DNA from: Minisyncoccota bacterium
GTDB taxonomy: Bacteria > Patescibacteriota > Minisyncoccia > JAHIHE01 > JAGLIN01
NCBI GenBank assembly: GCA_041661265.1
Contig: JBAZUT010000003.1
Coordinates: 143,191-207,190 of the forward strand
Length of the DNA stretch: 64,000 nucleotides
Direction: 5' to 3'
Shown: positions 30,250-60,440 of the stretch, in pieces
Position numbering within the stretch: position 1 is the first letter of the stretch
How the letters are laid out: every line of letters starts with the position of its first letter
The notes under the pieces: generated by a model
Database searches by the model: none
The model's input: the letters and a program-made list of their open reading frames with translations, nothing else
What the model was told of the DNA's origin: nothing
Translations under genes and position numbers: made by a program

Positions 30250-30278
30250 TTGTTATTTATTGAAATAAATGTTATAAT
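30250..30278 (+). promoter_or_regulatory. Sigma70-like promoter candidate at the head of the 30.3-42 kb plus-strand gene block
   Basis: TTGTTA, a 17-bp spacer and TATAAT, 30 nt upstream of the ATG at 30309. Confidence 0.3.
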
Positions 30279-30308
30279 TAAGCATATATTTTATATATAA
30301 GATCTTCT

Positions 30309-31013
30309 ATGAACGATGATAATATTAAAAAACGGCCAAGCGATTCTTCCGAAGTTACGGATGAGGCAGAAGAAAGTGAACAAAAAAACAGCAGTTCGGA
30401 TGATGCATATTTCAAAGACATTGAAGAATTGGAGAAGGCGAGAAAAGAACGCGAGGACAGAAAGAAAGAAGAACTGGAAAGATTGCGTAAGGAACGTTCC
30501 ATAAAAGGAAAGGAAGATGATGAAAAAGGCACTGAGGGGAAAGAATCATCGAAGGATGGCGCAATAAAAATCGGAGGACAGTCGGTATCAAGGGTCAAAA
30601 AAGAATTTTCAACGGAGAAAAAACTGTTCAGACATAATAAAATGTTCGGTTTCAGCGGTTCCGGAGCCGTAAAAATAGATAGGGCACTAAAGAAAGCCCA
30701 TATCAATACTGACAAAAGAAGGGATCTCATAGATGCTTTGGCAGCATACAATCCGAGCAAGACACTTCTCAAGAAGAGAGATTTCGTGTTGTTTGCGAGA
30801 AAATTCAAGAGTAAAAATTTTTCCGGGTCGCGATTCAAGCAGGCATCAAAGACCCTTGACATCAAAGGCATGAGAAAGGAATTTTCAAAAAGAGACCTGA
30901 ACAAGTTCAGAATGGCCGTAACCGGAGAATCCGATGCGCACAGATACCAGACAAAGACCGAATTCACTAAGGCCGGAAAACCGGACAGAAACGCGCCTAC
31001 AACAAAAAAATGA
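30309..31013 (+). CDS. Lysine/glutamate-rich hypothetical protein
   Basis: 234 aa, highly charged (KEREDRKKEELERLRKER...) with a basic C-terminus. The overlapping minus ORF 30278..31048 is the Ser/Phe/Leu-rich mirror artefact. Confidence 0.45.
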   Translation: MNDDNIKKRPSDSSEVTDEAEESEQKNSSSDDAYFKDIEELEKARKEREDRKKEELERLRKERSIKGKEDDEKGTEGKESSKDGAIKIGGQSVSRVKKEFSTEKKLFRHNKMFGFSGSGAVKIDRALKKAHINTDKRRDLIDALAAYNPSKTLLKKRDFVLFARKFKSKNFSGSRFKQASKTLDIKGMRKEFSKRDLNKFRMAVTGESDAHRYQTKTEFTKAGKPDRNAPTTKK

Positions 31014-31049
31014 TTATTTTTTAAAAGAAATATTGAAACTTCCTCCATA

Positions 31050-31078
31050 TTGACTAAGTTGGGATATTGTGGTATAAT
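31050..31078 (+). promoter_or_regulatory. Near-consensus extended -10 sigma70 promoter for the giant gene
   Basis: TTGACT, a 17-bp spacer and TGgTATAAT. The TATAAT lies inside the ORF-track N-terminus (MWYN...), which argues that the true start is the ATG at 31112. Confidence 0.5.
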
Positions 31079-31111
31079 GAAAAGTCAATATTTACCCCTA
31101 AATTCAAATCT

Positions 31112-34100
31112 ATGGAATTTCGAGGAAATGAAGACCCTAAGAGTTCAGCTGAACAGCTAAAACGTTTTGAAACTGAAAAAGAAAAATTAGAAACCATATA
31201 TGATTATTTGATCAATGGCAAAGACAAAGAGGGAAACGAAATAACCACCAGGGAGGGCAAGAACAGGGCAAAACAAGATAAAAAAGAAATAAAAAGAAAC
31301 ATTACGGAGCTGACAAATAAAATTAATGTTATATCTGCAACTTTGGGCAAGCATCAGGAAGAAAGCTCAACTGATAAAAAAGAAATTGAAGAGCAGGGCG
31401 ACGACAAAGAAACTGGCGCAGAATATTTCGGAAGCAGCATGGAAGATATCAGCTTGGTTGCAAGCACGATATTGGGTGAAACAGATAAAACTGTTGAGAA
31501 ATTGGACTCCAGAGGATCACAAAATATTCAGAAACTGGAAAATGCCAAAGCAACTCAAAAAGAATTGGGTGAAGCGAAAAAGAATGAAGATCAAATCAGC
31601 AGCGAGAGTAAATCTGAAGCTGAAAAACTCAAGAGTAAGCTTTTAGAGCTGACATTTCCGGAAATGGTCGCGGTTGACGGTTTGGACAATCAACAACTGG
31701 AAAACAAATTAAATGAAGTTGAAAATTTTCTTAAAATAAACAAGATCGATGTTGCATTTGAAGAAGATCAGGAGATAAAGTCTGATGTTGAGAAGAAACT
31801 TTCAAAAGCAATGATTGCGATCGGCGCATACAGAAGGGATCTGCTTCAGAAAAAACTGGGTATCGGTGGGATTGGCGACGACACGAAAATGCCGCCGAGT
31901 GAAAAACTTGAAATTCCAAAGCATATCGACTTGGATTTGAAAAATAACGATAATCTTGAAGCACTAAAGCCAATCCTTGAAGAAGGCAACCACCATGAAA
32001 TTGTAGCGGAAATAATGAAAATTGCCGGACTTAAACCGGAAGAATTGCAAAATTTTGATTACCGGATCGAATCAAACAAGGATAAATCGACAGCAGAGAT
32101 AGTATTCAGCAAAAAAGATTCAATGGATAAAGAATTTACGATTGCAATTGACCTGAGCGGCGGAAAAATTGAAAAAATAACTGACGAAGACCGATTGCGC
32201 ATGTTCAATGAATTGACAGATCTCTTTGCCGAAAGAGGAGACCTGATCAAGCAAAGGAGTAACGCCAAAGACAAAGAAGAGATCCGGAGAATCGATGCGG
32301 ATCTTTCTGCGGTTAACTCCAAGCTTGATTCTTTATATAAAAAAATAGACAGGCCGGAAACAATAAGCGCGTTTGATGATTCCGAAAAAGATAAAATAAA
32401 AAAGATCGGAGAAATTCTAAGATCGGCAAGGGTTACCGACAGTTTTGACTATATGTCAGGAACAGGGTCTGCTGATCTCGTTGAAGATACCATCAGAAAA
32501 CGCGGAGGATTCAAACGTCCCGACGATCCCAAAAAAGAACAGCAAGCACCCCAAGAGAATATCAAAATCGGACAAACATATGAGTGCATTAATCCTTATT
32601 TTGATTTTTATAAAAAAGGTGATTATATCAGAATTGCGGAACGACAGAATAATCAGATCAGCCTGATTGAAGTTGACAGTGACGGCAAACAACTGAGCAG
32701 GTCAATCATTTCAGATAATGATTCAGAAATTGATGAATTTTTAAAATGTTTTAAGGAAATCGATCTTGAGCCTAACTCGAGCGTTAATAATAATGAAAAA
32801 ACTATGGAACAAATACCCATCGAACCTATTTCGGGCGCCGAATCTAACGATGATAACTTATCCATCGAACGTTTTGATTTTGAAAATATCAGCGATAAAG
32901 AAGATTTATCAAATCGCCTGTTTGAATTTGGAAAAAAACTCGAAGAAAGCAATCTGCGGACAGAACGCGAGATTTCAACAGATCTTTTGTTGTTTCTACA
33001 AAACAAAAGCTTGGGCCACTTGGAATCTGCAAAAATGCAAATCGACAAGTGCACAAACGAAAATGCAAAAAATAAACTGCAGGAACTCATTGTGAAATGC
33101 GAGGAGATCGTGAAAAATGAACCAAAACCGAAAGAAGACAATAAAGCGGAAAAAACAGAAACTGAAAAATTTGAAGATATAAGAAAGAAATGGAAATGGT
33201 ATGAAAGTGTAATAGATGGATGTGAAAATCACCCAGATTGGAATATTAAAAGAATAATAGAAAATCTTGAATATTTTACTTCTCATCCATTTTTTAAAGA
33301 AGATTTATTGGAATATGGGCTTGACCAGAATGAAAATAATCGTAAAACGGCAGAAAATATTAGAAATGAAGAATTGAATAAATCAATTAAGATGTTTGAG
33401 AAGTGGATAAGTGTTGAAGATGATTTTATGAAAAAAAGCGAAGAAATAAAAAAGACATATAACGAATCTTCTGGCAATAGAAAAAAGGAAGATATAATCA
33501 AATCCTTAAAAGAGAGTTTGGAAAATTTAGACAGCTCTGTTTTGGATGGCACCGAATTGGAAGATAATGACGAGAATAAAAAAACAGGTCTTGCAATTCA
33601 GTCAAATATTTTTAGAAAACTTTTAGAAGAGCTGGAAGGCAAAAAAGAAGAAATTGCAAAAGCGGAGCCAATAAAAGAAGGGGAAGAACAAAAGCAAAGC
33701 AAAGAACAGGAGAATGGAAGTCTTTTAGGCATAAAAATCAAGACAGCCGAGGATGTCGGAAAAATGACCAATGATGAGTTTATGAGCGCGGGAGGCGAAG
33801 CATTTGCAAAATACGAAGAGCTCGAATCCGGCAAAGATTTTGAAACACTGAAGACCACTGATGAGTTTTTGGTGTTTGCCGGATATCTGAATATTCTAAC
33901 CTCTGAACACGACAAGCGGACGAGGGAAGGAAGGATCGAAGTCAAGAAGCATAGGATCGCTTCCAACGAAGAAATTAACGCGCTTGATATGAAGAGCCTG
34001 CAGGAAGAACTGTCCAGAACTGAAATTTATCTGAATTACATAAAGACAAACAAAAGCCAGGAAGACTGGTTCAGTTCGGAGTTCAGTGACTATGGGCTAT

Positions 34101-36793
34101 ATCAGCAAAAACTTGAAAATAGGATAAACGAAATAAACGAAAATCCCAGCGCGAGACCTGCCGAAACTCCAAAGGAAACAACAAACGAAACAGCAGAGAT
34201 CGAAACAATGAGCGATGAAGATATCAAGAAAGAAACCGATACTGATGCTCTTCAGGAAAAGATCGACGAAACCATCGACTACCTGAAAAATACTGAAAAC
34301 ATATCCGAAGAAGACCATTCGAGGCTTTCCGTGTATATAGATAATCTGCAGATCAGGAAAAGCGAATTGGAAAAGATATTGATCAGCAAGGGATACAAAA
34401 AAATAAACGCGGGAATTAAGGATCTGAATAAAAACATGATACAGATCGAACGGACATCCGAAACACAAGAGATTGAAAACATCAAAAATGCAAAAACCGT
34501 AAAAGAGCTGAGCGATGGAATCAGGAATATCGAAGCCAAGGGCTTTGACGGAAAGGATATCGCCAACATCAAGAAACTGAAAGATGTCATGGAGAACATA
34601 TTCTCTCAAATTGCAGATGAGAAAGGCGGAAAGCTCAAGAATGACGTAAACTCGCCGGACTTCAGGAATATAGTAACCGATTCCGCCAAAGACGCTACGG
34701 CAAAATCGTATATCGTGGCGTTATTTGCAGCGATCGAAAATATCAGATCAGAACGCAGAATTGAATTAAACGTCGGAGATAAAATAAGAATGAAAGAAAA
34801 AGACGGACAGGTCCGCGATGGATGGATCGTGACAAAGATCGACGGCAAAAATGCCGAAGTTCAAAACGATAAAAACGGAGAGATTCTTGAAACGACCCTT
34901 GGCGAATTGGCCGGCTGGCAGGACGATAAGCTTATGGAAGAAGCAAAGAGAATAAAGGATAAAGAAGAAGAGATCAAGCTGAGAGAATATGAACTGCAGT
35001 TAAACGGCGGCGAAACAGAAAAGGACGAGAAACTGAATAAGCTGAAAAGCGAGCTGAAAGAATTAAAGGGAGTTAAGACCGGGAAAGATGAGAAAAAGGA
35101 AGGGCCTCAAACCTATGGGGAAATCGTTGAAAACATGAAAAAAATGGGAGAATTCCTTGAAAAAAGAAAAGTTGAACTTTCAAAGATCAATAGCGACGAA
35201 CAAATACAGAAGATCAAGGACAAGGTCAGCAGAGGCGAGAAATTGAGCGAAAAAGAAACCTCACAATACAAATCGATGTTCATGGCAAAAGACGAGGTTA
35301 CGATCTCCGAGATCGGCATATCTGCGATACAGAACGCAGACCTGTACAAGATCGACCTCCCATCCCTATCGCATGAGGAAGCAATGAAAGTTCTGGATCG
35401 GCGCATAAAAGCCAGTAAAGTGGATCTTTTTCTTCATGAGAAATTGAGAAGCTCCATTCGTTCCTGCAACGAAAAAATATCCCAGATGGATGAGGGAAGA
35501 CGTGGGGTATATGGCGCAATCGCAGACGGCATTTTGCGCGCCGCAAAACATATCCCGATCATAAAGAATTATACTTATCCGAATCTCGAAGCAAAAACAG
35601 AGCAGGAAAAGAAAAGAGAAGAAGGCATCAAAGAGGGAGCGACCGTGAGCATAAAAGAGAAAAAAGGTATAAGTGAAAAATGGAAGATCGTGAAAATCGA
35701 AGGTAATAAGGTTATCGTCGAAAAAGAGAACAGGGCCATGAAAGAATTCAAAGAAAAAGATCTGATGAAATGGAACAGCATAACCGAAAAAGGTAAATTC
35801 AAAAAAGGCGACAAGATTAGGGTCATGGTTGACGGCAAGATCGGAACTGATTGGGTCATCGAGAATGTCGAAGACAATAAGATCTTGGCTGCAAACGATA
35901 AAGCCAAAACGGAAAAAACGGTCAAAAAAGAAGATATCGTCAGCATTCAGGAAAAAGCCGCGGACAAGGAAAGCTTTAAGGATCTCCTGAGGGAACTGAA
36001 TGAGTTAAAAAGCAAGGATCTGGATATGACAAATATCAAAGATATGGCAAGTTTTGACAAGACATCAAAAGCATTGAAAACCAAATTCAATGAGATGTCG
36101 CAAAAAACGTCCTATTTTGAGGGTTTGGAAGATAAAGCGAAGAATGACATTGTGAATGTATTCAATATAGACCTTAATTGGTACAATGAATGCGTCAGAA
36201 AGAAAAAGACTGAAGAGAAAATGAAAGATAGGGAGCAGGACAAAAAAGGATTCAACGACAAAGTAGAGCAGCACAAAAATCTTATAAAAAGACTGCCGGA
36301 TGAACTGAAGGATTTCAAGGAAAGCCTTGAAAAGTTCATTGAATTTGCGAGCCAAACATATCATGAAACAAAATATTCAGACGAACCTGCCGACAATGAT
36401 AATGAGAAAGAAGAAAAGACTCTGCTGAAAAAGATGTTCACAGGAAAAGAGATCAGGGCGATCAAGGACAGTGAAGATGCTGATGAATTGATCGAGGCTG
36501 TTGAAAAATTTAAAACGGAGCTTAAACCTCAAATAAAGGATCATAAGGCCATAGAATCATGCTATTTGGTTTTGGACGATCTTGCCAACGACTCCAAGAG
36601 GAACAAAAATATAAGAAAATATACAAGAGATAAAATAAGGGACGAGATAGAAAAAATCGAAGATGACAATGCAAAGAAATACCTTAGAGCGGTTTTGGAG
36701 AAAATCGACGGACTGATCACGTCAAAAAAAGCTGCTGTTGGAGACAAGCCCAAGAAAACATCGAAAAACAAATCCAAAACGCGGAAAAAATAG
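31112..36793 (+). CDS. Giant (about 1,893 aa) charged coiled-coil protein with four KOW/SH3-like small beta modules
   Basis: Continuous ORF rich in K/E/D heptad-like segments. Four related modules of roughly 45 aa sit near 32570 (GDYIRIAERQNNQISLIEV), 34773 (GDKIRMKEKDGQVRDGWIVTKI), 35636 and 35815 (GDKIRVMVDGKIGTDWVIENV). Confidence 0.6.
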   Translation: MEFRGNEDPKSSAEQLKRFETEKEKLETIYDYLINGKDKEGNEITTREGKNRAKQDKKEIKRNITELTNKINVISATLGKHQEESSTDKKEIEEQGDDKETGAEYFGSSMEDISLVASTILGETDKTVEKLDSRGSQNIQKLENAKATQKELGEAKKNEDQISSESKSEAEKLKSKLLELTFPEMVAVDGLDNQQLENKLNEVENFLKINKIDVAFEEDQEIKSDVEKKLSKAMIAIGAYRRDLLQKKLGIGGIGDDTKMPPSEKLEIPKHIDLDLKNNDNLEALKPILEEGNHHEIVAEIMKIAGLKPEELQNFDYRIESNKDKSTAEIVFSKKDSMDKEFTIAIDLSGGKIEKITDEDRLRMFNELTDLFAERGDLIKQRSNAKDKEEIRRIDADLSAVNSKLDSLYKKIDRPETISAFDDSEKDKIKKIGEILRSARVTDSFDYMSGTGSADLVEDTIRKRGGFKRPDDPKKEQQAPQENIKIGQTYECINPYFDFYKKGDYIRIAERQNNQISLIEVDSDGKQLSRSIISDNDSEIDEFLKCFKEIDLEPNSSVNNNEKTMEQIPIEPISGAESNDDNLSIERFDFENISDKEDLSNRLFEFGKKLEESNLRTEREISTDLLLFLQNKSLGHLESAKMQIDKCTNENAKNKLQELIVKCEEIVKNEPKPKEDNKAEKTETEKFEDIRKKWKWYESVIDGCENHPDWNIKRIIENLEYFTSHPFFKEDLLEYGLDQNENNRKTAENIRNEELNKSIKMFEKWISVEDDFMKKSEEIKKTYNESSGNRKKEDIIKSLKESLENLDSSVLDGTELEDNDENKKTGLAIQSNIFRKLLEELEGKKEEIAKAEPIKEGEEQKQSKEQENGSLLGIKIKTAEDVGKMTNDEFMSAGGEAFAKYEELESGKDFETLKTTDEFLVFAGYLNILTSEHDKRTREGRIEVKKHRIASNEEINALDMKSLQEELSRTEIYLNYIKTNKSQEDWFSSEFSDYGLYQQKLENRINEINENPSARPAETPKETTNETAEIETMSDEDIKKETDTDALQEKIDETIDYLKNTENISEEDHSRLSVYIDNLQIRKSELEKILISKGYKKINAGIKDLNKNMIQIERTSETQEIENIKNAKTVKELSDGIRNIEAKGFDGKDIANIKKLKDVMENIFSQIADEKGGKLKNDVNSPDFRNIVTDSAKDATAKSYIVALFAAIENIRSERRIELNVGDKIRMKEKDGQVRDGWIVTKIDGKNAEVQNDKNGEILETTLGELAGWQDDKLMEEAKRIKDKEEEIKLREYELQLNGGETEKDEKLNKLKSELKELKGVKTGKDEKKEGPQTYGEIVENMKKMGEFLEKRKVELSKINSDEQIQKIKDKVSRGEKLSEKETSQYKSMFMAKDEVTISEIGISAIQNADLYKIDLPSLSHEEAMKVLDRRIKASKVDLFLHEKLRSSIRSCNEKISQMDEGRRGVYGAIADGILRAAKHIPIIKNYTYPNLEAKTEQEKKREEGIKEGATVSIKEKKGISEKWKIVKIEGNKVIVEKENRAMKEFKEKDLMKWNSITEKGKFKKGDKIRVMVDGKIGTDWVIENVEDNKILAANDKAKTEKTVKKEDIVSIQEKAADKESFKDLLRELNELKSKDLDMTNIKDMASFDKTSKALKTKFNEMSQKTSYFEGLEDKAKNDIVNVFNIDLNWYNECVRKKKTEEKMKDREQDKKGFNDKVEQHKNLIKRLPDELKDFKESLEKFIEFASQTYHETKYSDEPADNDNEKEEKTLLKKMFTGKEIRAIKDSEDADELIEAVEKFKTELKPQIKDHKAIESCYLVLDDLANDSKRNKNIRKYTRDKIRDEIEKIEDDNAKKYLRAVLEKIDGLITSKKAAVGDKPKKTSKNKSKTRKK

Positions 36794-36820
36794 CCACCAA
36801 ATAATCAATTAACTAAAATT

Positions 36821-37141
36821 ATGAAACTTATAGACGATAAAATGATCGAGGATATAATAGACTCCCTGGGCCTTCGGTTTCTTTCAGTCGAAAAAAGAAA
36901 TGAGATCTTGACTATGACGCTTGAACTTATCAGCAAGAGGGCCAGCATCAGAATAATTGAAAGCTTAAACGACGTCGAAGTCGGAGAGTTCAGCAACATC
37001 CCCAAAAATGAATTTGAAAAAATAGAAGATTTCCTCATTTTAAAGAATCCGAATGCAAAGACCATATTTGAAGAAGAACTTGCAAAGACCAAGAACGATA
37101 TTTTGAGTTCAAAGATTAACTTAAGCAACAATGAACAATAG
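36821..37141 (+). CDS. Hypothetical small protein
   Basis: 106-aa ORF lying between co-oriented genes. No motif was found. Confidence 0.35.
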   Translation: MKLIDDKMIEDIIDSLGLRFLSVEKRNEILTMTLELISKRASIRIIESLNDVEVGEFSNIPKNEFEKIEDFLILKNPNAKTIFEEELAKTKNDILSSKINLSNNEQ

Positions 37142-37313
37142 CGAAAAAATAAAAAAGATCAAAGAGATCTATGGCGCATTTCACGCCAAAATGAGAGATA
37201 TAATAAAACGGCAGTCCGATCTTATCGAGAAAATAGGCAGGCATTCGGATAACAAGAAGATCGAACAGGTCCGGAATAAGATCAGGAATTTATAATTTAT
37301 CATTGTAAAATAT

Positions 37314-38954
37314 ATGGCAAAACCAGAGGATACTCTTGATGAAACGAATATTAATAAGAAGGAGGCGAAAGAGATCGGCGTCGAAAACGAATCAGGCGGG
37401 GAGGTTTTAGCTGTTGAGACCGAAAAAACGAGGGAAGAAACCGACATGGTTACAAGCGGCGAGAGCATGACCGAAAACAGAATTGCCGCCCTGGAAGCGG
37501 AAAGCGATCCAAAAGCAAGTGAATTTCGCGGCGAAGCGGAAACCATCCAAAATGATCGCAGATCCGCGGAATCAACTCGCGACATGGACTTAGATAGACT
37601 TGAAGAAACAAATGAAACCGGGCAGGAAGCTGAATCGATGGATGAAGCAACGATAAAAAAATTATTGACCACCCTTGATTCCGCAAAACTGGATGCCCCG
37701 GAAAAGAAGAGAGTGCTTGATAAATTGATCGCGTCATACGAGAAATTGTACGGCAGCGCGAATGAGGATGAAAGAACCGCGATATTCAAAGAAAATCCTA
37801 CTCTCCGGGAAATTGTCGGATTGATCAATAAGATAGATAACGACATAAAACAAGCAGGTCCGGGAAACGAGCATGACAATGAGCCTGACACGGAAGATGT
37901 GACCGATGAAACAAATGAGAGCCCTGAATCAGGAGCTGATCCGATCAAAGAAAAGATCAAAAACAATGAGATGCTTTCGGTCGAGGAAGAAAAGATCTTG
38001 TTTGATAAATGCGAGAAGATCATTTTAAAGCAAAGGAACGGAGAGGATATAAGCGAGGAAGAGGTCGCCATGGTCATGATGTACCAAGAAGCTGTCGGAA
38101 AGGGCCTTACAGCCAAAGGCGCGGAAGTAAATGAGTCGGTAGATAAAGACGTGGAAGAAATAAATGCATTCAATGAAAAAAGCAAGGAAGAGAAAGACAA
38201 GGATATCAACGAGAGGCTGGAAAAGATCAAAAGCTCGGGAATAGAACTTAGTGATAAAGCTGAAGATGCTGAGGAACATATCAAGGAACTGGAAAAACAG
38301 CTCAAAGACAGATATGACGAATTTACAAAGATGGAAGAAGATATAGAAAAGATCAGAAATACCGAAGGCGTTGACCAGGAGGGTGCGAGAACATTAAAAA
38401 ACACCATTTCTTCACTGAAAAATATATATACGGACAAGCTGCACATAGAATATTATGAATATTGGATCAAATACCTCAAGGGAGGAGTGGAATCCCTGCA
38501 TGACTCCCATGCAAAACATAATATTTCCATGAATCAGCTGGAGACGCTTGGCGGGGACCTTGAAAGCGACCTTGCAAGCATAGAAAAAGGCGAATCGGAA
38601 GTACTTGCGAAATGGGCACAGTTTATAAAAGATCATCCAAAAACTGGACTTGCGCTTATTACCGCCGCCTTAGCCGCCGGAATCTTACTATCTCCATATC
38701 TTGTAAAATTTCTCGGCGCGCCGGAAATTGCAAAGCTTGGCACGGGAGCATTGGCTCCGCTGATGAAGCCGACTATAGCGTTGGGCGCAAAAGCAGTCGG
38801 AAGTCTGGCGTCGATATCAGGTTCCGTGGGTCTCGCAGGCATATTTCTTTTGCTGACGAACAGCGAAAAGATCGATGATGCCATGGAATCGATCTGGGGG
38901 AAGAAGATCCCCAATTGGGCCTCCTGGGGCCTAAAGAAGAAAGGCCAGAAGTAA
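37314..38954 (+). CDS. Acidic coiled-coil protein with a C-terminal multi-helix membrane anchor
   Basis: 546 aa. A D/E-rich body is followed by a hydrophobic C-terminus LALITAALAAGILL...GSVGLAGIFLLL. Confidence 0.5.
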   Translation: MAKPEDTLDETNINKKEAKEIGVENESGGEVLAVETEKTREETDMVTSGESMTENRIAALEAESDPKASEFRGEAETIQNDRRSAESTRDMDLDRLEETNETGQEAESMDEATIKKLLTTLDSAKLDAPEKKRVLDKLIASYEKLYGSANEDERTAIFKENPTLREIVGLINKIDNDIKQAGPGNEHDNEPDTEDVTDETNESPESGADPIKEKIKNNEMLSVEEEKILFDKCEKIILKQRNGEDISEEEVAMVMMYQEAVGKGLTAKGAEVNESVDKDVEEINAFNEKSKEEKDKDINERLEKIKSSGIELSDKAEDAEEHIKELEKQLKDRYDEFTKMEEDIEKIRNTEGVDQEGARTLKNTISSLKNIYTDKLHIEYYEYWIKYLKGGVESLHDSHAKHNISMNQLETLGGDLESDLASIEKGESEVLAKWAQFIKDHPKTGLALITAALAAGILLSPYLVKFLGAPEIAKLGTGALAPLMKPTIALGAKAVGSLASISGSVGLAGIFLLLTNSEKIDDAMESIWGKKIPNWASWGLKKKGQK

Positions 38955-38997
38955 TTTTGACCCCATATTTTAGTTTTGATATACGTAACATAATCCC

Positions 38998-39429: not shown

Positions 39430-39462
39430 TCTTCGATTAACATCTTAGCCTAATCATAATCT

Positions 39463-41928: not shown

Positions 41929-41929
41929 A

Positions 41930-42098: not shown

Positions 42099-42180
42099 AT
42101 TTCACTATCACACCCAATAAGCCGTTTTAAAGGCCGGGTATTGCCAATTTGGCTGGAATTGATATAATGTTCTAGTATCT

Positions 42181-42253
42181 GCGGGTGTCGTATAACGGCT
42201 TATTATGCTAGCCTTCCAAGCTGGAGACGTGGGTTCGACTCCCATCACCCGCT
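42181..42253 (+). tRNA. tRNA-Gly (anticodon TCC)
   Basis: GCGGGTG acceptor stem, anticodon stem CTAGC/GCTGG with loop CTTCCAA, T-arm GTGGG-TTCGACT-CCCAT, and discriminator U. Confidence 0.75.
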
Positions 42254-42285
42254 CATCGATAATGAAAAATGCAGCATAAAAAAAC

Positions 42286-44268
42286 TTGATGATATTAAAA
42301 CAAAATATTTACGCGGTCAAGAAAAAAACAAAACAACTAAAATCGTTTTATGCGTTTATGTTGTTTTTTTGTGCCTTTTTCATTTATTCACCTTTTATAT
42401 TTTCCGGATACGCAAAAGCTGACACGCTTAATGACAAAGTTAATTTCCTCGTCGATTCTTCATATGACTCGAATAACCGGTCGAATATCGATACGACACT
42501 GAGAAAGATCAGCAATTACGCTTTTTTTTATGTCGAAAACGAATATTACGATTCCCTTGGATATGCCGAACAGGTTAAATTCGATTCCGACCTTGAAAAT
42601 CTTGCTTCCAGTTTTGATAACACGATATATCCCAGAATGCGCAATATCTTCGGGGATGAATGGAGTCCCGGAATTGACAACATGGAACACATCACAATAC
42701 TTTTCACAAAAACAAAAGAGAATGTCGGCGGTTATTTCAATCCCAACGACGAGTATCCGAAATCAAATGTCGTCGATGACAAAAGCAATGAGAGAGAAAT
42801 GCTCTATCTGAACGCAATTTTTGCAGGCAATGACAGGATAGAAAGTTTTATAGCCCATGAATTTCAGCACATGATAACGTGGTATCATAAAACTAAACTT
42901 AGAAATATCAATGACGACATCTGGCTGAACGAATCCAGATCGGAATATGCATCGACCGCGATAGGATATGATGACGACTATCAGAAAAGCAATCTTCGCG
43001 CCAGAGTCGAGAATTTCATGCAAAATCAGACTGACTCGCTTACGGAATGGCAGAACAAGATCCAGGATTATTCTTCCGTAAATCTCTTTTCTCAATACCT
43101 CGCCGATCATTTCGGAGGCGACACCTTCAGGACTATGATAGGCAATGATACTGCCGGCATCGAAAGCATAAATAAGGCGCTCAGCGAAAATGGCTTCACG
43201 AGCAGTGTTTTTTCCGATATTTTTTCGAATTGGAGCGTGGCCAATTATCTGAACAACAGATATTATCTTGACGGAAAATATGGATACATTAATCCAAATC
43301 TTACATATGACAATTTCCATCTGGCACCGACAAAGACCTATTTTATCGGCAACGACGATATTCCCGTCAGCATATCAGCTTCCATTAAAGACTGGAGTTC
43401 GAGATATTTTGAAATAAAACCGGCCAATAACCTGACGGGCTTGAATATCGAGATAAGCTTTAACGGCGATAATTCGGGTAAATTTGCTGTTCCATATGCG
43501 CTCATGTCCGGAGATGCGGTTGTTTCCGTGAGTAAAGCTATTCTTGACAGGAATCAGGATAATAAAATACTGGTCAAAAACTTCGGAACAGATATCACTT
43601 CCGTCATATTGATGCCGAATAGCCAGAAAAAAACAGAGGGATTCGGGAGCGAGATAGAATCATATTCATTTTCCATTTCCGTTAAGACGATCATCGGAGA
43701 ACTATACCCCGACGGCACAATTCTAAAATCATACAAAAATCCTGAAGTATATCTGATCGAGGACGGAAAGAAGAGGTGGATCACGAGCGCTGCGGCTTTT
43801 ATTTCAAACGGATACAGCTGGAATAACATAACCTATATAAATTCTAACGAACTCGACTTTTTTGAAAGAGGAGAAAATATTTATGCAAAAGACCTGAAAC
43901 CCGACGGCACTCTCATTAAGGGCAGCGGACCGGAGGTTTATATTGTTGAAAACGGAATGAAAAGATGGATAACGACAGCCGGAGTTTTCGTGTCGAGGGG
44001 CTATAAATGGGAAAACATCATAACTGTGTCGGAAAACGAACTCGGTTCATATACAGAAGGTCAGGATATATCTTTCCAGAATCTGAAACCCGACGGCACT
44101 CTCATTAAGGGCAGCGGACCGGAGGTTTATATTGTTGAAAACGGAATGAAAAGATGGATAACGACAGCCGGAGTTTTCGTGTCGAGGGGCTATAAATGGG
44201 AAGAGATCGTCGTGATCCCGGACATAGACTTGAACTCTTATGCGGACGGATTGGATATAGACAGATGA
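42286..44268 (+). CDS. Secreted protein with an HExxH (zincin-like) motif and three C-terminal repeats of about 63 aa
   Basis: Signal/TM helix LKSFYAFMLFFCAFFIYSPFIF. An AHEFQHM motif is present. The three C-terminal repeats (YPDGTILK...VYLIEDGKKRWITS...GYSWNNI) are related to those of the downstream hydrolase. Confidence 0.55.
   Translation: MMILKQNIYAVKKKTKQLKSFYAFMLFFCAFFIYSPFIFSGYAKADTLNDKVNFLVDSSYDSNNRSNIDTTLRKISNYAFFYVENEYYDSLGYAEQVKFDSDLENLASSFDNTIYPRMRNIFGDEWSPGIDNMEHITILFTKTKENVGGYFNPNDEYPKSNVVDDKSNEREMLYLNAIFAGNDRIESFIAHEFQHMITWYHKTKLRNINDDIWLNESRSEYASTAIGYDDDYQKSNLRARVENFMQNQTDSLTEWQNKIQDYSSVNLFSQYLADHFGGDTFRTMIGNDTAGIESINKALSENGFTSSVFSDIFSNWSVANYLNNRYYLDGKYGYINPNLTYDNFHLAPTKTYFIGNDDIPVSISASIKDWSSRYFEIKPANNLTGLNIEISFNGDNSGKFAVPYALMSGDAVVSVSKAILDRNQDNKILVKNFGTDITSVILMPNSQKKTEGFGSEIESYSFSISVKTIIGELYPDGTILKSYKNPEVYLIEDGKKRWITSAAAFISNGYSWNNITYINSNELDFFERGENIYAKDLKPDGTLIKGSGPEVYIVENGMKRWITTAGVFVSRGYKWENIITVSENELGSYTEGQDISFQNLKPDGTLIKGSGPEVYIVENGMKRWITTAGVFVSRGYKWEEIVVIPDIDLNSYADGLDIDR
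43894..44202 (+). repeat. Two 120-nt stretches identical at the nucleotide level (period 189 nt) within the CDS, indicating a recent tandem duplication
   Basis: CTGAAACCCGACGGCACTCTCATTAAGGGCAGCGGACCGGAGGTTTATATTG...GGCTATAAATGGGAA occurs at 43894-44013 and again at 44083-44202. Confidence 0.8.
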
Positions 44269-44354
44269 TCACAAAAGCGGCTTGTTTCTGATGAGCTGTT
44301 TTTTTTATCGATAGCGCCAAACGGAACAATATGCTATAATGTGGTCATAGAAAT

Positions 44355-47300
44355 ATGATTATTACAAAATTAAATTCAAAGAAATTACCCTATTCTGCTA
44401 TTTTATTCCTAGCAGTATTTTTTGCCTTGTTCGAAAACATCGCATATGCATCGAATTCTATCGCGCCTGAAATAATACCCCGATCCGTCTGGGGAGGAAG
44501 CAAAACGACCCCGGATTGGCCAGTTGAATACGGCAATGCGGAAAAATTCGTAATTCACCACACCGCCAGCTCCACTCTCACTCCCGATGCGGACGGAAGC
44601 GGTAAATACACCGACATGGTGGAAAGCATATTCGATTATCACAGCGAAAAAAAAACCTGGTATGACGATGATGGGGAGTATGTCGGATTCGGAGATATAG
44701 GATACAACTACATCATAGATCCGAATGGGAATATTTATGAAGGCCGAGCCGGCGGGAACGGGAGCACCGGCGGACACGTGAAAGGATTCAATGTCGGCAG
44801 CATCGGCATTTCCGTTCTCGGAAGGTATCAAGGATATCTCAATTCCAAGAACGAGAACGTACCATCCCACCCCGTCACGGATTCGATCCTGGATTCTCTG
44901 AAAAATCTGATCGGCTGGCTTGCTTCTGCGAATAACATAGACCTGAACGCTACGACGGAATTCCATGGAAAAAATATAGACGGGATCGTCGGACACAGGG
45001 ACCTTTCGGCAACGATATGCCCGGGAAATGACCTTTATTCAAAACTCAGCGAGATACAGAATTCTGCCGTCATCAAAAAGACGGAATTCGACAAATACGC
45101 CTATCAGATTCCGGGCGACCGGTCGATATACGTCATCGACGAAGGCTATAAGCTGAAATTTAACTCGTTAGGGGAGCTTCCAAGCGGACACAGGAACAAA
45201 AATGTCATAGCCGCTTCCGAAGCTCAATTGGACCTTTTCAGATATAAGGATTCAACGATATATCCCGATGGATCGCTATTGCAGGAATTCGGTTCTAATG
45301 CGGTTTATTATATCGACAAACAGGAGAAAAGACATCTGAATATGAAAGGCGAAGAGTTTTCAAAAATGGGATTCGATAATTCCAAGATCATATACGTTTT
45401 TAAAAGCGATCTGAATATTTACAAAGAGGGGAAAAACATCAAATACGGACCGGACGGAAAATTGGTCAAAGACGCAAGTTCGAAAGTATACCTTATTCAG
45501 AGCGGAAAGAAAAGAGGATTCACCTCGGCAAAGCTTTTCGAGTTCCTCGGATATAGATGGAAGAATATCGAACTAGATGAAAACATCGGTCTTTATCTTG
45601 ATGGAGGCGATATGCTGTATCCGGACAAATCCCTGGTCAAAACCGCCGCCAGTCCCAATGTCTATTTCATTGAAAATAAGCAGAAAAGAAAAATAACCTC
45701 GGATACCCTGTTCAATAAGCTGGGATACAAGACAAAAAATGTGATCACGATCGAAGATGTCGAACTCTCCCATTTTCCGAGCGCAAAAAATATGACATAC
45801 CCCGACGGCACGCTCCTACAGCAAGAGAACAGGCCTTCGGTTTATCTCGTCGCAAATGGCAGTGTCAGGATATTTCCTTCAGCTGAATTATTCCTGAAAC
45901 TCGGATATAAATGGAAGAACGTGACCGCGATCAAGGCAGATGAGTTCAAGAATTATTCCTATGCAGGAAGGGTCCTGCAACCAAATGGGACATTGATCAG
46001 ACCATTGGACGGATCGGACATTTATCTTGTCGACAATGGCACAAAGAGAAAGATATCTTCGGCTTTAATGTTCGAAAAGCTCGGATACAAATGGAACAGC
46101 GTACTCCCGCTTCCACCGGACCAGATCAATGAATATCCTTCCGGAGAGAATTTAAAGTATCCGGATGGAACATTGATCAAAAAGGAAGGATCCGGGATCA
46201 TTTACAGAATCGACGGCGGGAAGATCAGGGAATTCACATCCCAAACGCTTTTCGAAAAGACCGGAAGCAAGTGGACGGATGTCGTGACTCTTCCGGCCAA
46301 TGAATTTGCAGCGTATGCATATGGCGGGATCGTAATGTATCCGAATAAGACTTTGCTCCGGGAAAAGGGAAAGGATGCCATCTATGTCATAAAAGATCAA
46401 AAAGCTTTGGGCATTAAAAGCCTGGCTGAATTCAATAAAGCCGGATATAAATGGAAGGATGTGATTGATCTGCCGAAAGAAGAAATAACCCTGATGATTG
46501 ATCCGGGCAAGGCGTTCCAGAGGGATGCAACACCGCAATACATTCCGGCCAAATCTCCGGCTAAAAGCGCGGATGCATTGACCAGCCAGGAAAAAACCGA
46601 GCCTCCCGCGTCGAACACTTCCGCCAACAAACCGGTTAATCCCGACATAAAGATAGCAATATACTCGATCACGGAAGGAAGTGTAAGGATGACGGCCAAC
46701 GGACCGTATAAAGTGGATCATATGAACGGAGACGGTACTATCCAGAAAACGGAAAAAAGATCCGCGAACGAGCAGACCGAAATAGCATATTTCAATTCCG
46801 CGTCCTATGTAAAATTCACCCCATCAAGCAAAGATACAGTGCTTGAGGTCGTGTCGTATAACGATCCATCCTGGAACAATGCCGTGAATGATAACAGATT
46901 CAGAGGTAATATTATAATCAAATACTCGGATATTTCCGATAAGCTATGGATCGTAAATGAGCTTCCTCTGGAAGATTACGTTAATGGAATAGCCGAAACT
47001 ACGAGCGAAAGCCATAACGAATATCTCAAGGCGTTCAGTATAATTGCAAGAACTTATGCAATGTATTATATTGAAAGGGGAGGCAAGCACATCGGAGAAC
47101 CTTTCCACCTGAAGAACAGCAGAAATGGAAATGGCAATGATCAGTCATATAAGGGATATAATTTCGAGATAAGAGCCGATAAGATAGTTTTGGCAAGCAG
47201 AGAAACTGCGGGAAAAATAATAACCTTTAACGGAAAACCGATTGTAGCGGCGTATTCATCGGATTCGGGCGGCGTTACAAAAAGCGCCTGTGATGTTCTG

Positions 47301-47510
47301 AGCAAAACTTATTGCAACAGCGACTTTTCCTATCTTTCCGGCGGCGCCAATGATCCAGATGGAACCGTTCACGACCGGAACAAGATGGCATCGAGTCATG
47401 GAGCCGGTATGAGTGCGGTGGGAGCCCTCAAGATGGCAGAAAACGGCACCTCCTTGCAGAACATGATCGCGCACTATTACCCTGGAGTTGAAATTATTAA
47501 ATATTATTGA
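44355..47510 (+). CDS. Secreted multidomain peptidoglycan hydrolase: PGRP/Amidase_2, about ten 60-aa repeats, and a SpoIID/LytB domain
   Basis: Signal peptide, then the Amidase_2 core (FVIHHTAS...GYNYIIDPNGNIYEGRAGG...ATICPGN). About ten tandem repeats follow (YPDG[ST]L[IL]..VY[LY]IxNGxKRxIxSxxxFxxLGYKWxNV). The C-terminal SpoIID signature is LEDYVNGIAE...ARTYAMYY...YSSDSGGVT. Confidence 0.75.
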   Translation: MIITKLNSKKLPYSAILFLAVFFALFENIAYASNSIAPEIIPRSVWGGSKTTPDWPVEYGNAEKFVIHHTASSTLTPDADGSGKYTDMVESIFDYHSEKKTWYDDDGEYVGFGDIGYNYIIDPNGNIYEGRAGGNGSTGGHVKGFNVGSIGISVLGRYQGYLNSKNENVPSHPVTDSILDSLKNLIGWLASANNIDLNATTEFHGKNIDGIVGHRDLSATICPGNDLYSKLSEIQNSAVIKKTEFDKYAYQIPGDRSIYVIDEGYKLKFNSLGELPSGHRNKNVIAASEAQLDLFRYKDSTIYPDGSLLQEFGSNAVYYIDKQEKRHLNMKGEEFSKMGFDNSKIIYVFKSDLNIYKEGKNIKYGPDGKLVKDASSKVYLIQSGKKRGFTSAKLFEFLGYRWKNIELDENIGLYLDGGDMLYPDKSLVKTAASPNVYFIENKQKRKITSDTLFNKLGYKTKNVITIEDVELSHFPSAKNMTYPDGTLLQQENRPSVYLVANGSVRIFPSAELFLKLGYKWKNVTAIKADEFKNYSYAGRVLQPNGTLIRPLDGSDIYLVDNGTKRKISSALMFEKLGYKWNSVLPLPPDQINEYPSGENLKYPDGTLIKKEGSGIIYRIDGGKIREFTSQTLFEKTGSKWTDVVTLPANEFAAYAYGGIVMYPNKTLLREKGKDAIYVIKDQKALGIKSLAEFNKAGYKWKDVIDLPKEEITLMIDPGKAFQRDATPQYIPAKSPAKSADALTSQEKTEPPASNTSANKPVNPDIKIAIYSITEGSVRMTANGPYKVDHMNGDGTIQKTEKRSANEQTEIAYFNSASYVKFTPSSKDTVLEVVSYNDPSWNNAVNDNRFRGNIIIKYSDISDKLWIVNELPLEDYVNGIAETTSESHNEYLKAFSIIARTYAMYYIERGGKHIGEPFHLKNSRNGNGNDQSYKGYNFEIRADKIVLASRETAGKIITFNGKPIVAAYSSDSGGVTKSACDVLSKTYCNSDFSYLSGGANDPDGTVHDRNKMASSHGAGMSAVGALKMAENGTSLQNMIAHYYPGVEIIKYY

Positions 47511-47517
47511 TAGTTCA

Positions 47518-47859
47518 ATGGAGCTGAACAAAAAAATATATTTTTCACTGATCGTATTTGCGATCAGTATTGCACAAGAGACCAATGCCACTCTGTCGAC
47601 ATTCGATTTTACTTCTCCAATTGAAAAAACTGACGTCAAAATCATATTGACTGACTTTCTTAAATGGCTGCTTACCGTGGTAGGATCATTCGCTTTTTTA
47701 GCGCTGATCATAGCAGGTATTTCATATATGACATCGATGGGCAATGTTGAAAAGGCTAAAAAGGCGAAAAAATCCGTGCTGTGGATAATCGGCGGACTAG
47801 TATTAATCCTGCTGTCATACTCCATTCTCGTAGTACTGGACAGTATTTTTACCGGTTAA
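47518..47859 (+). CDS. VirB2/TrbC-like pilin-type small protein, paralog 1
   Basis: Signal peptide, then two hydrophobic helices separated by a basic loop: FLKWLLTVVGSFAFLALIIAGISYMTSMGNVEKAKKAKKSVLWIIGGLVLILLSYSILVVL. The start was moved to the ATG at 47518 because 47488 overlaps the upstream gene. Confidence 0.5.
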   Translation: MELNKKIYFSLIVFAISIAQETNATLSTFDFTSPIEKTDVKIILTDFLKWLLTVVGSFAFLALIIAGISYMTSMGNVEKAKKAKKSVLWIIGGLVLILLSYSILVVLDSIFTG

Positions 47860-47877
47860 AAGCAAAATAAATTTAAT

Positions 47878-48216
47878 ATGAGATCAATTACGCATAGGAT
47901 CATATTCGTACTTTTGGTTTTTAGCATCATCGGCGCAGACAATGCACATTGCTTAACCACAACCTATAAACTTCCTCCGACAACATCAACAACGGATTTT
48001 CAGATGTTGCTGGTTAATTTATTACACTGGATGCTTTCCGTGATCGGTCCGATCGCATTGATAATGCTTATCATAGCAGGGATGATGCATATAACATCAG
48101 CAGGAGATCCTCAGAAGGCGGCTTCAGCAAAAAAAGTCTATATGGCCATGGCAGGCCTGATCATTGCGTTATTATCCTATTCAATGCTCGTATTATTAAA
48201 TAATATGTTTACATAA
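47878..48216 (+). CDS. VirB2/TrbC-like pilin-type small protein, paralog 2
   Basis: Same architecture as paralog 1: LLHWMLSVIGPIALIMLIIAGMMHITSAGDPQKAASAKK...LLSYSMLVLL. Confidence 0.5.
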   Translation: MRSITHRIIFVLLVFSIIGADNAHCLTTTYKLPPTTSTTDFQMLLVNLLHWMLSVIGPIALIMLIIAGMMHITSAGDPQKAASAKKVYMAMAGLIIALLSYSMLVLLNNMFT

Positions 48217-48224
48217 TATAAATT

Positions 48225-48584
48225 ATGACAAAAACAAATAACATTATGATTTCTTTAATTTGTCGCATTCTTCCGACGCTTTCAATATTCGCGCTTGTAA
48301 ATACCGCTAATGCAGCAACAACGACCTATAAAGTGACAAACCCGATAGCCACAAGCGATTTTGCAAAAATAGTGGCTAATTTTTTGAAATGGTTTCTTTC
48401 CGTAGCCGGAGCCATTGCGATGATAATGCTTATAGTAGCAGGCATCATGTATATGGGTTCAGCAGGAAATCCTCAGAAGGCGGCTTCAGCGAAAAAAATG
48501 GTGATGATAACACTAGGCGGACTGATATTATCGCTTTTATCATATTCGATCCTGGTAATACTTGATAATATTTTTACAAAATAA
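48225..48584 (+). CDS. VirB2/TrbC-like pilin-type small protein, paralog 3
   Basis: FLKWFLSVAGAIAMIMLIVAGIMYMGSAGNPQKAASAKK...LLSYSILVIL. The 31-nt stretch CAGGAAATCCTCAGAAGGCGGCTTCAGCGAA is shared almost exactly with paralog 2. Confidence 0.5.
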   Translation: MTKTNNIMISLICRILPTLSIFALVNTANAATTTYKVTNPIATSDFAKIVANFLKWFLSVAGAIAMIMLIVAGIMYMGSAGNPQKAASAKKMVMITLGGLILSLLSYSILVILDNIFTK

Positions 48585-48587
48585 CAT

Positions 48588-48953
48588 ATGACAACGATTG
48601 AAAGAAAGGGCGTAAAACTAATTTCCTTCTCCATATATTATTATGCATTTCTGATGGTCTTTCTCATTCAAAAGAAAGCTGAGGCTGCGTCGACGATCAC
48701 GGCAGTCACAAGAAAAATAAAAGTCAGCGACTTTGTGCATCTTATTGAAAACGTTTTTAAGTGGTCGCTCTCCGTTGCGGGAGGAATAGCGCTCATCATG
48801 CTCATAATCGGAGGCATCACATACATGACATCAACCGGAAATGAGCAGAAAGCCATGCAGGCAAAGAAAACATTTTATTGGGCGCTGGGCGGACTCATGC
48901 TACTGATCCTTGCGTATGGAATAGGTTTCGTCATATACGGAATATTCTTTTAA
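48588..48953 (+). CDS. VirB2/TrbC-like pilin-type small protein, paralog 4 (most divergent)
   Basis: FKWSLSVAGGIALIMLIIGGITYMTSTGNEQKAMQAKK...LAYGIGFVIYGIFF. Confidence 0.45.
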   Translation: MTTIERKGVKLISFSIYYYAFLMVFLIQKKAEAASTITAVTRKIKVSDFVHLIENVFKWSLSVAGGIALIMLIIGGITYMTSTGNEQKAMQAKKTFYWALGGLMLLILAYGIGFVIYGIFF

Positions 48954-49876: not shown

Positions 49877-49935
49877 TCTGAATGCAAAAAAAGACGGCTA
49901 AGAGTCCGGCTTTTTTAATTCTGTCTTATTTCCCG

Positions 49936-50730: not shown

Positions 50731-50751
50731 AAGCTTTTATTAATGATAAAT

Positions 50752-60431: not shown

Positions 60432-60440
60432 TCTTAATCT

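Follow-up and report, generated by a model that had tools for sequence, protein, structure and literature searches.

A predicted coupling-protein-like ATPase operon next to wall enzymes and a VirB2-type pilin array in a Patescibacteria chromosome

Much of bacterial diversity belongs to the Patescibacteria, and attachment to other cells is the way of life of many members studied so far. The subject of this work is a block at ~30.3-49 kb on the + strand of a 64,000-nt stretch of a Minisyncoccota bacterium chromosome (GenBank assembly GCA_041661265.1, contig JBAZUT010000003.1; the whole stretch is called the window below). The block encodes a membrane-anchored ATPase, two predicted wall enzymes and four VirB2-type pilins, and an original prediction had read all 19 kb as a single apparatus resembling a type IV secretion system (T4SS). 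The parts related to type IV secretion are real and of kinds described in 2023-2025, and they are not one complete new secretion machine. Across relatives, only the ATPase and the genes upstream of it are conserved together. The block thus consists of three adjacent units, not of one conserved machine.

The closest described systems come from two studies. In the parts used here of a survey of 3,035 Patescibacteria genomes (PMC12102498, Quinonero-Coronel et al. 2025), 2,417 genomes are reported to have a VirB4 that belongs to a clade of its own, with kinship to the conjugation systems of monoderms (MPF-FATA). This VirB4 is usually encoded near dnaA, together with TrsD, VirB3, VirB6 and VirB2-like pilins. 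A pilin gene lies near virB4 in 1,135 of 1,948 assemblies, and 441 VirB2 arrays of 2-11 genes each are catalogued. VirD4-like homologues number 5,713 and occur in 2,918 of the 3,035 genomes, with 148 of them near virB4. Relaxases are very rare, the organisms rely on imported nucleotides, and exaptation of coupling proteins 'cannot be ruled out' according to the authors. The second study concerns the only genetically tractable species, 'Candidatus Southlakia epibionticum', in which T4SS genes and a pilin array are essential for epibiotic growth (PMC10633639, Wang et al. 2023). Its gene table contains a canonical essential FtsK, an essential 1,019-aa 'TraM recognition' ATPase behind two small genes (SEML1_0142), and a non-essential 921-aa gene resembling type IV coupling proteins (T4CPs; SEML1_0293).

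The core of such systems is missing from the present locus. As originally predicted, no window protein has a Pfam match to a VirB4 or VirB6 family. Neither of these, nor a relaxase, was found in the window, in ~10 kb of its left flank (which holds only nucleotide metabolism and ABC transporter genes and no T4SS gene) or in ~1 kb of its right flank. VirB3-, VirB6- and VirB8-like proteins were not detected in the window with Pfam or NCBIfam. Since the VirB4 clade, TrsD, VirB3 and VirB6 are all absent from the window and the fetched flanks, the locus is at most a satellite of the Patescibacteria T4SS.

All of the genes first listed for the block are present on the + strand with the expected places and sizes (open reading frame (ORF) map), in an uninterrupted same-strand run from 30.3 to 49.9 kb, and the GC content of the block is even throughout. 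Intergenic gaps within units are 3-86 nt, or the genes overlap; the gap between the ATPase gene g6 and the tRNA gene is 252 nt. It is reasonably probable that the block comprises three separable units arranged head to tail on one strand of a Paceibacteria-class chromosome, namely an ATPase operon, wall enzymes and a VirB2 array, and that the association of the first with the other two reflects synteny within a small clade. Unit A (30.3-41.9 kb) would be an operon whose last gene encodes the membrane-anchored ATPase, a member of the VirD4/TrwB lineage. Its upstream genes would encode a DUF5663 protein and the g5 protein (both conserved, cytoplasmic and helical), a 54-aa ORF, an acidic membrane-hairpin protein and a giant charged protein. 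Unit B, past a tRNA-Gly gene, would supply two exported wall enzymes with a ~60-aa repeat in common, one of them HExxH metalloprotease-like and the other an amidase/SpoIID hydrolase, and unit C four VirB2-type pilin paralogues. The features are as follows; promoter-like sites come from a consensus scan scored as matches out of 12 with a TG extension, and are predictions that carry no evidence of function.

30250-30278, + strand: promoter-like site before g1 (10/12 matches, TG extension)
30309-31013, + strand: g1, 234-aa protein with 18% K and 10% E, no transmembrane segment and no signal peptide
31050-31078, + strand: strong promoter-like site at the start of g2-g6 (11/12 matches, TG extension)
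31067-36793, + strand: g2, giant protein of 1,908 aa from TTG, or 1,893 aa from ATG 31112
34754-34924, 35618-35782 and 35789-35956, + strand: three KOW/SH3-like beta modules within g2 (mutual resemblance, SPT5 match)
36821-37141, + strand: g3, 106-aa acidic cytoplasmic protein of the DUF5663 family
37131-37295, + strand: g3b, 54-aa ORF preceding g4, its first 11 nt shared with the 3' end of g3
37314-38954, + strand: g4, 546-aa acidic protein (15% E)
38998-39429, + strand: g5, 143-aa protein in which a helix at the N-terminus is joined by a disordered linker to a conserved four-helix domain at the C-terminus
39463-41928, + strand: g6, 821-aa membrane-anchored ATPase
42141-42168, + strand: strong promoter-like site before tRNA-Gly and the downstream unit (11/12 matches, TG extension)
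42181-42254, + strand: tRNA-Gly(UCC) (ARAGORN and Rfam)
42286-44268, + strand: g7, 660-aa secreted or membrane-anchored HExxH protein
44355-47510, + strand: g8, 1,051-aa secreted peptidoglycan hydrolase (predicted)
47488-47859, 47878-48216, 48225-48584 and 48588-48953, + strand: four tandem pilin paralogues (PF18895)

Gene order was compared in 80 loci, each fetched for a homologue of the ATPase with 50-80% identity in the best aligned segment. They come without exception from metagenome-assembled genomes (MAGs) of the Paceibacteria class, Moranbacteria included. Their ORFs were clustered, and neighbourhoods were counted in those 61 loci that extend 5 kb or more upstream of the ATPase. Members of the g5 family occur in 61 of the 80 loci (47 of the 61), and those of the g3 (DUF5663) family, cluster c3, in 47 (39 of the 61). 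A family of charged proteins of 700-1,500 aa (c2) occurs in 49 of the 80, and a same-strand protein of at least 600 aa, either c2 or unclustered, precedes the ATPase in 50/61. Further upstream, 35/61 loci contain an FtsQ-like gene. Downstream of the ATPase, HExxH or hydrolase genes are found in 3/61 loci and pilins in one. The full order of ATPase, tRNA, HExxH protein, hydrolase and pilins recurs in L013, L081 and L088, which are all close relatives. The ATPases of L013 and L081 are at least 71% identical to g6, and the housekeeping flanks of L081 are syntenic too. Because these loci are close relatives with syntenic housekeeping flanks, the shared order carries little weight. Only the set of a large variable charged protein, a DUF5663 protein, a ~145-aa protein and the ATPase travels together. 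Many MAG records that show the Moranbacteria-type arrangement of genes are titled 'uncultured Bdellovibrionales', 'Micavibrio' or 'Bathyarchaeia' (L008, L016, L021-L023, L066, L009 and others); these titles look like taxonomic mislabels in third-party assemblies.

The tRNA-Gly gene, recognised in the original prediction and found by both ARAGORN and Rfam, marks the conserved end of the ATPase unit. It directly follows the ATPase in all eight close relatives checked (L001, L002, L003, L006, L013, L047, L081 and L088), is missing there in both Moranbacteria-type loci checked, and is followed by gene content that differs between the eight relatives. A fixed tRNA gene with changing genes beyond it is also the pattern of a variable region beside a tRNA gene.

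The ATPase itself corresponds well to the 821-aa coupling protein with an N-terminal transmembrane anchor that had been predicted. Residues 1-40 are hydrophobic, and the AlphaFold2 (AF2) model places a helix at 14-47. The DUF8128 N-domain (nt 39604-40602) is followed by the P-loop domain (nt 40645-41925), with a Walker A motif GQTGTGKS at residue 426 (nt 40738) and a Walker B DE at residues 681-682, both invariant among the aligned homologues. DUF8128 is precomputed by Pfam on homologues, where it covers the N-terminal ~350 residues. The Pfam matches of g6 are DUF87, TrwB_AAD_bind (26.3 bits against a cut-off of 20.5) and TraG-D_C. In NCBIfam, the VirD4-like CD1115 family matches residues 398-741 with 5e-11, at 42 bits far below its equivalog cut-off of 250; TraD families also match, as do, weakly, CedD (8e-6), CedB (3e-4) and HerA. 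A profile built from 42 homologues and searched against PDB sequences retrieved TrwB (1.4e-7), DotL (7e-4) and HerA (6e-3); no FtsK chain appeared in this search, and no VirB4 chain at E<=10. No match to the VirB4 families CagE_TrbE_VirB, AAA_10 and TraC was obtained at E<=0.01, nor any FtsK_SpoIIIE match in Pfam, and HerA matches are weaker than those to coupling proteins. Judged by these similarities, g6 is assigned to the VirD4/TrwB coupling-protein lineage, nearer to it than to HerA or FtsK. The suggestion that it might instead model as an FtsK/HerA protein finds no favour, as the coupling-protein matches are stronger than those to HerA and FtsK gave none.

The fold comparison adds a second aspect. 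In the AF2 model (mean confidence, pLDDT, 75 overall and 85-90 in the N-domain), a long helix at the N-terminus precedes an alpha/beta N-domain, and the P-loop domain contains a helical insertion. This insertion, an all-helical stretch at ~501-614, lies between the Walker motifs and is a candidate counterpart of the TrwB all-alpha domain. The best fold match is TrwK/VirB4 (score 15.0), followed by DotL (10.0), Cag-beta (9.6), EccE3 (9.4, spanning 158 residues that are probably those of the g6 N-domain), the VirB4 C-domain (9.2), TrwB (9.0) and HerA (8.8). Foldseek aligns g6 end to end with VirB4 over both domains, with low TM-scores (0.25). The layout is also VirB4-like, comprising an N-terminal alpha/beta domain and a C-terminal RecA-like ATPase in ~800 aa. 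Sequence thus links the P-loop domain to coupling proteins, but it is VirB4 that gives the best fold matches and the end-to-end alignment. VirB4 itself (TrwK of R388; PDB 7o42, 8rtd) shares with g6 its length of ~800 aa, but there is no match at the sequence level, and g6 has no VirB3, VirB6 or TrsD neighbours.

The family is large, with 22,520 clusters (50% identity) at E<=1e-3 and 5,848 at E<=1e-30. Among its members are proteins of Bacillus plasmids (NZ_OX419568.1, NZ_CP012476.1) that are homologous over their full length, N-domain included (22-25% identity, residues ~94-814, E down to 2e-35). The gene next to each of them on the downstream side encodes a 'replication-relaxation' protein, and genes for TcpC, TcpE and an AAA_10 VirB4-like ATPase follow in one run, an arrangement that puts the homologues in the coupling-protein slot of a Gram-positive conjugation module. 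Such Tcp/ICEBs1-type ATPases are homologous to g6 over the N-domain and P-loop (82-88% of g6 covered), belong to the same size class and have the same Pfam matches (DUF87, TrwB_AAD_bind). However, they adjoin a relaxase-like gene, TcpC, TcpE and the AAA_10 ATPase, whereas g6 is a stable chromosomal gene without these neighbours. Large Bacillus myophages also encode remote full-length homologues (20-24% identity, 80-92% coverage), including those of phages G (gp156), SPO1 (gp27.4), SP8, SP-10 and others; the corresponding family is phrog_5156 (E=4.5e-87). A defence-system reading was rejected, as the PADLOC mad8 match (1.2e-15) and the HerA matches are confined to the P-loop domain, and PADLOC matched none of the other genes in the block. 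Domain fusions were also discarded as a hint to function: DUF8128 ATPases of 1,200-2,000 aa carry low-complexity tails rich in P/A or S/Q, with no Pfam domain. In some distant DUF8128 ATPases such C-terminal tails range from ~600 aa (P0164) to ~1,200 aa (P0179) and end in a short conserved motif, GEVY[VI]DExGNV.

Within the phylum, the orphan VirD4-like T4CPs of the survey resemble g6 in being chromosomal, near-universal, far from virB4 and without a nearby relaxase. In the parts of that paper used here they are only counted, and the DUF8128 N-domain, the VirB4 alignment over both domains and the operon with DUF5663, g5 and a large protein are additions of the present analysis (PMC12102498). 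No mention of DUF5663 or DUF8128 was found in the literature searched. Patescibacteria seem to carry at least two paralogues of the DUF8128 ATPase. One locus, L131, has the order YifB, two small genes, ATPase and GyrB, and its DUF8128 protein (3776-6769) matches SEML1_0142 by synteny. In another, L133, a sigma factor precedes the ATPase, and the DUF8128 protein matches SEML1_0293 by synteny. L133 carries two DUF8128 paralogues within 10 kb (1783-4560 and 9067-10560). The small partners of these ATPases differ between classes. No claim is made for orthology of g6 to either S. epibionticum gene, as a crude neighbour-joining tree has poor resolution, with g6 tending towards the non-essential SEML1_0293 and its group.

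Upstream of the ATPase, g5 is its most conserved partner. The g3 protein is assigned to its family through relatives. The L081 homologue carries PF18908 (DUF5663, precomputed by Pfam) and that of L054 a weak match (E=0.0015, below the gathering score); g3 itself has no DUF5663 match and nothing in Pfam above the curated cut-off. A sub-threshold Pfam match of g3 to a histone-chaperone domain was treated as noise. The expectation that these proteins belong to no characterised family is thus correct for g1, g2, g4 and g5, none of which matches a family in Pfam, NCBIfam, PADLOC or PHROGs, and has to be amended for g3, whose relatives carry DUF5663. The 54-aa g3b resembles ORFs of 54-65 aa at the same position in L013, L006 and L005 (cluster c36), and probably belongs to the operon as a genuine small gene. 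In g4 the C-terminal region contains a pair of Gly/Ala-rich hydrophobic helices (residues 444-469 and 494-516). Its cluster (c18) is limited to close relatives, as are the homologues of g1 (c32; the L081 version is a 228-aa gene). In the Moranbacteria-type c2 family, 37 of 50 members have one to three hydrophobic segments of the g4 kind, and the c2 protein of L054 has a pair of them in mid-protein.

The giant g2 is rich in K and E, evolves fast and has neither a transmembrane segment nor a signal peptide. The promoter-like site at 31050-31078 overlaps TTG 31067, so ATG 31112 is the likelier start, in agreement with the 1,893 aa originally given. Three of the four KOW/SH3-like modules proposed for it are supported, at residues 1230-1286, 1518-1572 and 1575-1630. 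They resemble each other with z of 4.8-7.4 relative to other g2 windows, and residues 1499-1631 match the SPT5 KOW region (E=3e-4). The fourth (residues 497-548; nt 32555-32710) is marginal. No similarity was detectable between g2 and either the c2 family or the proteins of 700-1,300 aa that relatives encode at this position. Homology to these large upstream proteins was accordingly dropped, having been missed by a full-length c2 hidden Markov model (HMM), an HMM of the C-terminal 130 aa of c2 and pairwise BLAST.

In unit B, g7 is the predicted HExxH protein with repeats. It has the motif HEFQH at residue 191 (nt 42856), an N-terminal hydrophobic segment at residues 20-43 and three C-terminal repeats of ~60 aa (nt 43702-44259). 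There is no match to g7 in Pfam, NCBIfam or PDB sequences, and the repeats match phrog_9616. The same repeat occurs in about seven copies in g8 (nt 45258-46475). The identification of g8 as a PGRP-amidase/SpoIID hydrolase is confirmed by Pfam (Amidase_2 of the PGRP type, 2e-17, nt 44538-45029; SpoIID, 6e-12, nt 46938-47339), by NCBIfam (SpoIID_LytB, 4e-30) and by PDB chains (SpoIID, 2.7e-16; PGRP, 4e-12). The VirB1-like role ascribed to it is possible by analogy, but g8 is not a VirB1 homologue; its Amidase_2 and SpoIID domains are not the SLT or CHAP domains homologous to VirB1, TrsG or CD419. SpoIID acts on glycan after an amidase has stripped the peptides, as established for the Bacillus SpoIIP/SpoIID pair. 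Because SpoIID cuts glycan that the amidase has stripped of peptides, g8 could in principle degrade peptidoglycan processively. It unites the same two sequential activities as the Bacillus pair, amidase and SpoIID lytic transglycosylase. However, its amidase is of the PGRP/T7-lysozyme type rather than SpoIIP, and it is a single secreted fusion with seven repeats of the wall-binding type and no sporulation context.

The four predicted VirB2-like pilin paralogues of unit C all score above the PF18895 (T4SS_pilin) gathering score of 26.6 bits, with 33.0, 30.9, 30.6 and 40.4 bits. Their match to TrbC/VirB2 in Pfam is just below the cut-off, and the NCBIfam Mbov_0395 pilin-like family is matched with 37.6 and 33.2 bits against 40. 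Sequences and alignment show the layout of VirB2, consisting of a signal peptide and two hydrophobic helices connected by a short charged loop. The suggestion that they might turn out to be holins or generic membrane peptides was not borne out. The paralogues are 38-48% identical to the first, whose gene overlaps the 3' end of g8. This tight linkage in the clade fits a wall-opening role for g8.

Related pilins were surveyed by a metagenome scan that yielded 44 loci with 123 pilin ORFs, with flanks fetched up to 10 kb where the contig allowed. The ATPase or the hydrolases stand beside the pilins in L088 only, a close relative, and 43 of the 44 loci have neither in the fetched flanks. Instead, the other arrays adjoin solute-binding proteins, a nucleotidyltransferase, DUF2079, GyrA, signal peptidase, HisRS, FtsH or a penicillin-binding protein, and FtsH is the sole Walker-A protein of at least 560 aa in these flanks. 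The array of S. epibionticum and the 441 catalogued VirB2 arrays (PMC10633639; PMC12102498, in the parts used here) are likewise tandem, divergent VirB2-type pilins of monoderms, and share with the window pilins PF18895, the signal peptide and the two hydrophobic helices. The S. epibionticum array, however, lies inside a VirB4/VirB6 cluster, whereas the arrays of the window and of 43 related loci have unrelated neighbours, and a T4SS ATPase is missing from the fetched flanks. Also unlike that array, the one described here directly follows an amidase and SpoIID hydrolase. The pilin HMM also matches inside giant ORFs of L089 (1,866 aa) and L114 (2,435 aa), which sit downstream of a group of signal peptidase, HisRS and small genes. 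They are fusions to a pilin domain, or else arrays that were joined through reading with a wrong genetic code.

TrwB and VirD4 form hexamers at the membrane. By homology, g6 would do the same, and would use ATP to recruit and push a macromolecular substrate. As no relaxase is present, this cargo is more likely to be protein than DNA. It is quite possible, if somewhat doubtful, that the cargo or scaffold consists of the large charged proteins of the operon itself. The small conserved proteins may be adaptors bound to the DUF8128 domain, and g6 may either dock on a VirB4/VirB6 channel encoded elsewhere or work alone. For the pilins, insertion by Sec and processing would be followed by polymerisation, carried out by a VirB4-type machine encoded outside the window. 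Finally, g8 would open the wall locally, its amidase stripping stem peptides before SpoIID cuts the denuded glycan.

Several observations weigh against this account of the three units. The role of the ATPase is read from homology and gene order alone, no operon partner has a recognisable function, and the fold search with g5 gave no informative match. Because homology between g2 and the large proteins that occupy its position elsewhere could not be detected, the idea that the operon encodes its own cargo rests on position. A reading of the giants as coupling-protein substrates through positively charged C-terminal tails failed across loci. The tail of g2 is K-rich, but its 35 positional equivalents have a mean net charge of +2.1 over the last 30 residues and reach +5 less often than background. 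Finally, a distance of 5.5 kb separates the pilins from the ATPase in this clade, and their array overlaps the gene of the hydrolase, so a functional link is possible.

The original reading of the whole 19 kb as one non-canonical T4SS-like surface apparatus would have the ATPase supply the power, g8 act in the manner of VirB1, the pilins form a filament and the giants serve as structure or cargo. The tight packing of all genes on one strand, the recurrence of the order from ATPase to pilins in three loci and the overlap of the pilin and hydrolase genes are in keeping with this, as is the end-to-end alignment of g6 with VirB4, the pilus-assembly ATPase. However, the three loci are close relatives whose housekeeping flanks are syntenic as well. 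In the wider class neither pilins nor hydrolases adjoin the ATPase operon, the ATPase is missing at 43/44 pilin loci, and the tRNA gene and a promoter-like site split the block, in which no VirB6-, VirB3- or VirB8-like protein was detected. A single apparatus is thus unlikely, and on these grounds the three-unit reading was preferred. The operon might also be a device for handling DNA, either for uptake or for translocation of chromosome or plasmid DNA at division. The archaeal Ced system combines a VirB2-like pilus with a HerA/VirB4-like ATPase, and g6 matches CedD and CedB, at scores that are far below the cut-offs. Coupling proteins are DNA pumps, the KOW-like modules of g2 have a fold that often binds nucleic acid, and imported nucleotides are a need of the phylum (PMC12102498, in the parts used here). 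An FtsQ-like gene upstream in 35/61 loci could point to division, but in Moranbacteria-type loci two opposite-strand glycosyltransferase genes part it from the operon. Together with the lack of FtsK matches in Pfam and the PDB profile search, the lack of a relaxase or DNA-processing gene in the block, and the canonical essential FtsK and ComEC competence route of S. epibionticum, this makes a DNA device very unlikely. A role of g6 as an FtsK analogue was set aside for the same entry in the S. epibionticum table (PMC10633639).

It is also conceivable, though quite unlikely, that the operon is an exapted, VirB4-independent system for export or anchoring of the hypervariable giants, in the manner of type VII secretion. 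Type VII systems comprise a membrane ATPase of the FtsK/HerA class, small helical partners and large polymorphic substrates. The operon does have membrane-hairpin proteins (g4, or the middle of c2), and a DUF8128 paralogue with two small upstream genes appears essential in S. epibionticum (SEML1_0142, by synteny with L131). Moreover, VirD4-like genes occur in more Patescibacteria genomes than VirB4 does, with 2,918 against 2,417 in the parts used here of the survey (PMC12102498). However, the operon encodes no channel-forming polytopic protein, its partners differ between classes, no secretion signal was found on the large proteins, and the crude tree places g6 nearer to the SEML1_0293 group than to that of SEML1_0142. 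A broader proposal is that the set of large hypervariable charged protein, DUF5663 protein, g5 family and DUF8128 ATPase is a distinct phylum-wide system and no remnant of a T4SS, a self-contained VirB4-independent machine derived from a Gram-positive coupling protein that exports giants or anchors them at the cell surface for host contact, or assembles the stand-alone pilin arrays. This is a speculation that we consider improbable.

Under the preferred division into three units, what is new is modest. Orphan VirD4-like genes and VirB2 arrays had already been described in Patescibacteria (PMC10633639; PMC12102498, in the parts used here), which weakens the novelty claimed for the block. The conserved accessory operon of the ATPase and the end-to-end Foldseek alignment of this orphan protein with VirB4, a structural resemblance, appear undescribed. 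Nearly every genome of the phylum has VirD4-like ATPases unlinked to the secretion cluster, and the window offers a clean example. Here the ATPase has fixed partners, namely the DUF5663 protein, the ~145-aa helical protein and the large fast-evolving charged protein, which turn an 'orphan T4CP' into a defined, testable operon. The locus also cautions that neighbouring genes on one strand of such a compact genome need not form a single machine.

The block is embedded in ordinary chromosome. Upstream are ParA/ParB, GreA, LysRS, SerRS, a Mur ligase, DegT, FemAB and an FtsQ-like POTRA protein; downstream are glycosyltransferases, radical SAM enzymes, LigT and GluRS. The genes nearest to the block are:

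29109-30113, + strand: FtsQ-like POTRA protein (Pfam POTRA_1, 2.2e-5), upstream context outside the system
48974-49876, + strand: family-2 glycosyltransferase (Pfam Glycos_transf_2, 2.5e-22)

The glycosyltransferase gene starts 20 nt past the last pilin gene, has the same position in L081, and is probably the last gene of the same-strand run. A 295-aa Arg-rich ORF follows (49882-50769, + strand), which has no family match and looks spurious. Its region in L081 encodes a 262-aa Memo/LigB-like protein on the opposite strand (here 49936-50730, - strand). The run is taken to end at 49876 because the ORF looks spurious and the L081 gene there is on the opposite strand. Two long opposite-strand ORFs, 30278-31048 and 37181-38446, are antisense to K/E-rich coding sequence and unsupported in relatives. 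Elsewhere in the window, the lysyl-tRNA synthetase (20260-22347, + strand) has a C-terminal HD phosphohydrolase domain at residues 527-599. At 59106-63868 a tyrosine integrase (61727-62617, - strand) lies amid peptidase genes and a gene for a NUDIX protein. The peptidases are of the C39 type, with an N-terminal coiled-coil-like region, and of the papain family (C1), and this region may be a small integrated element.

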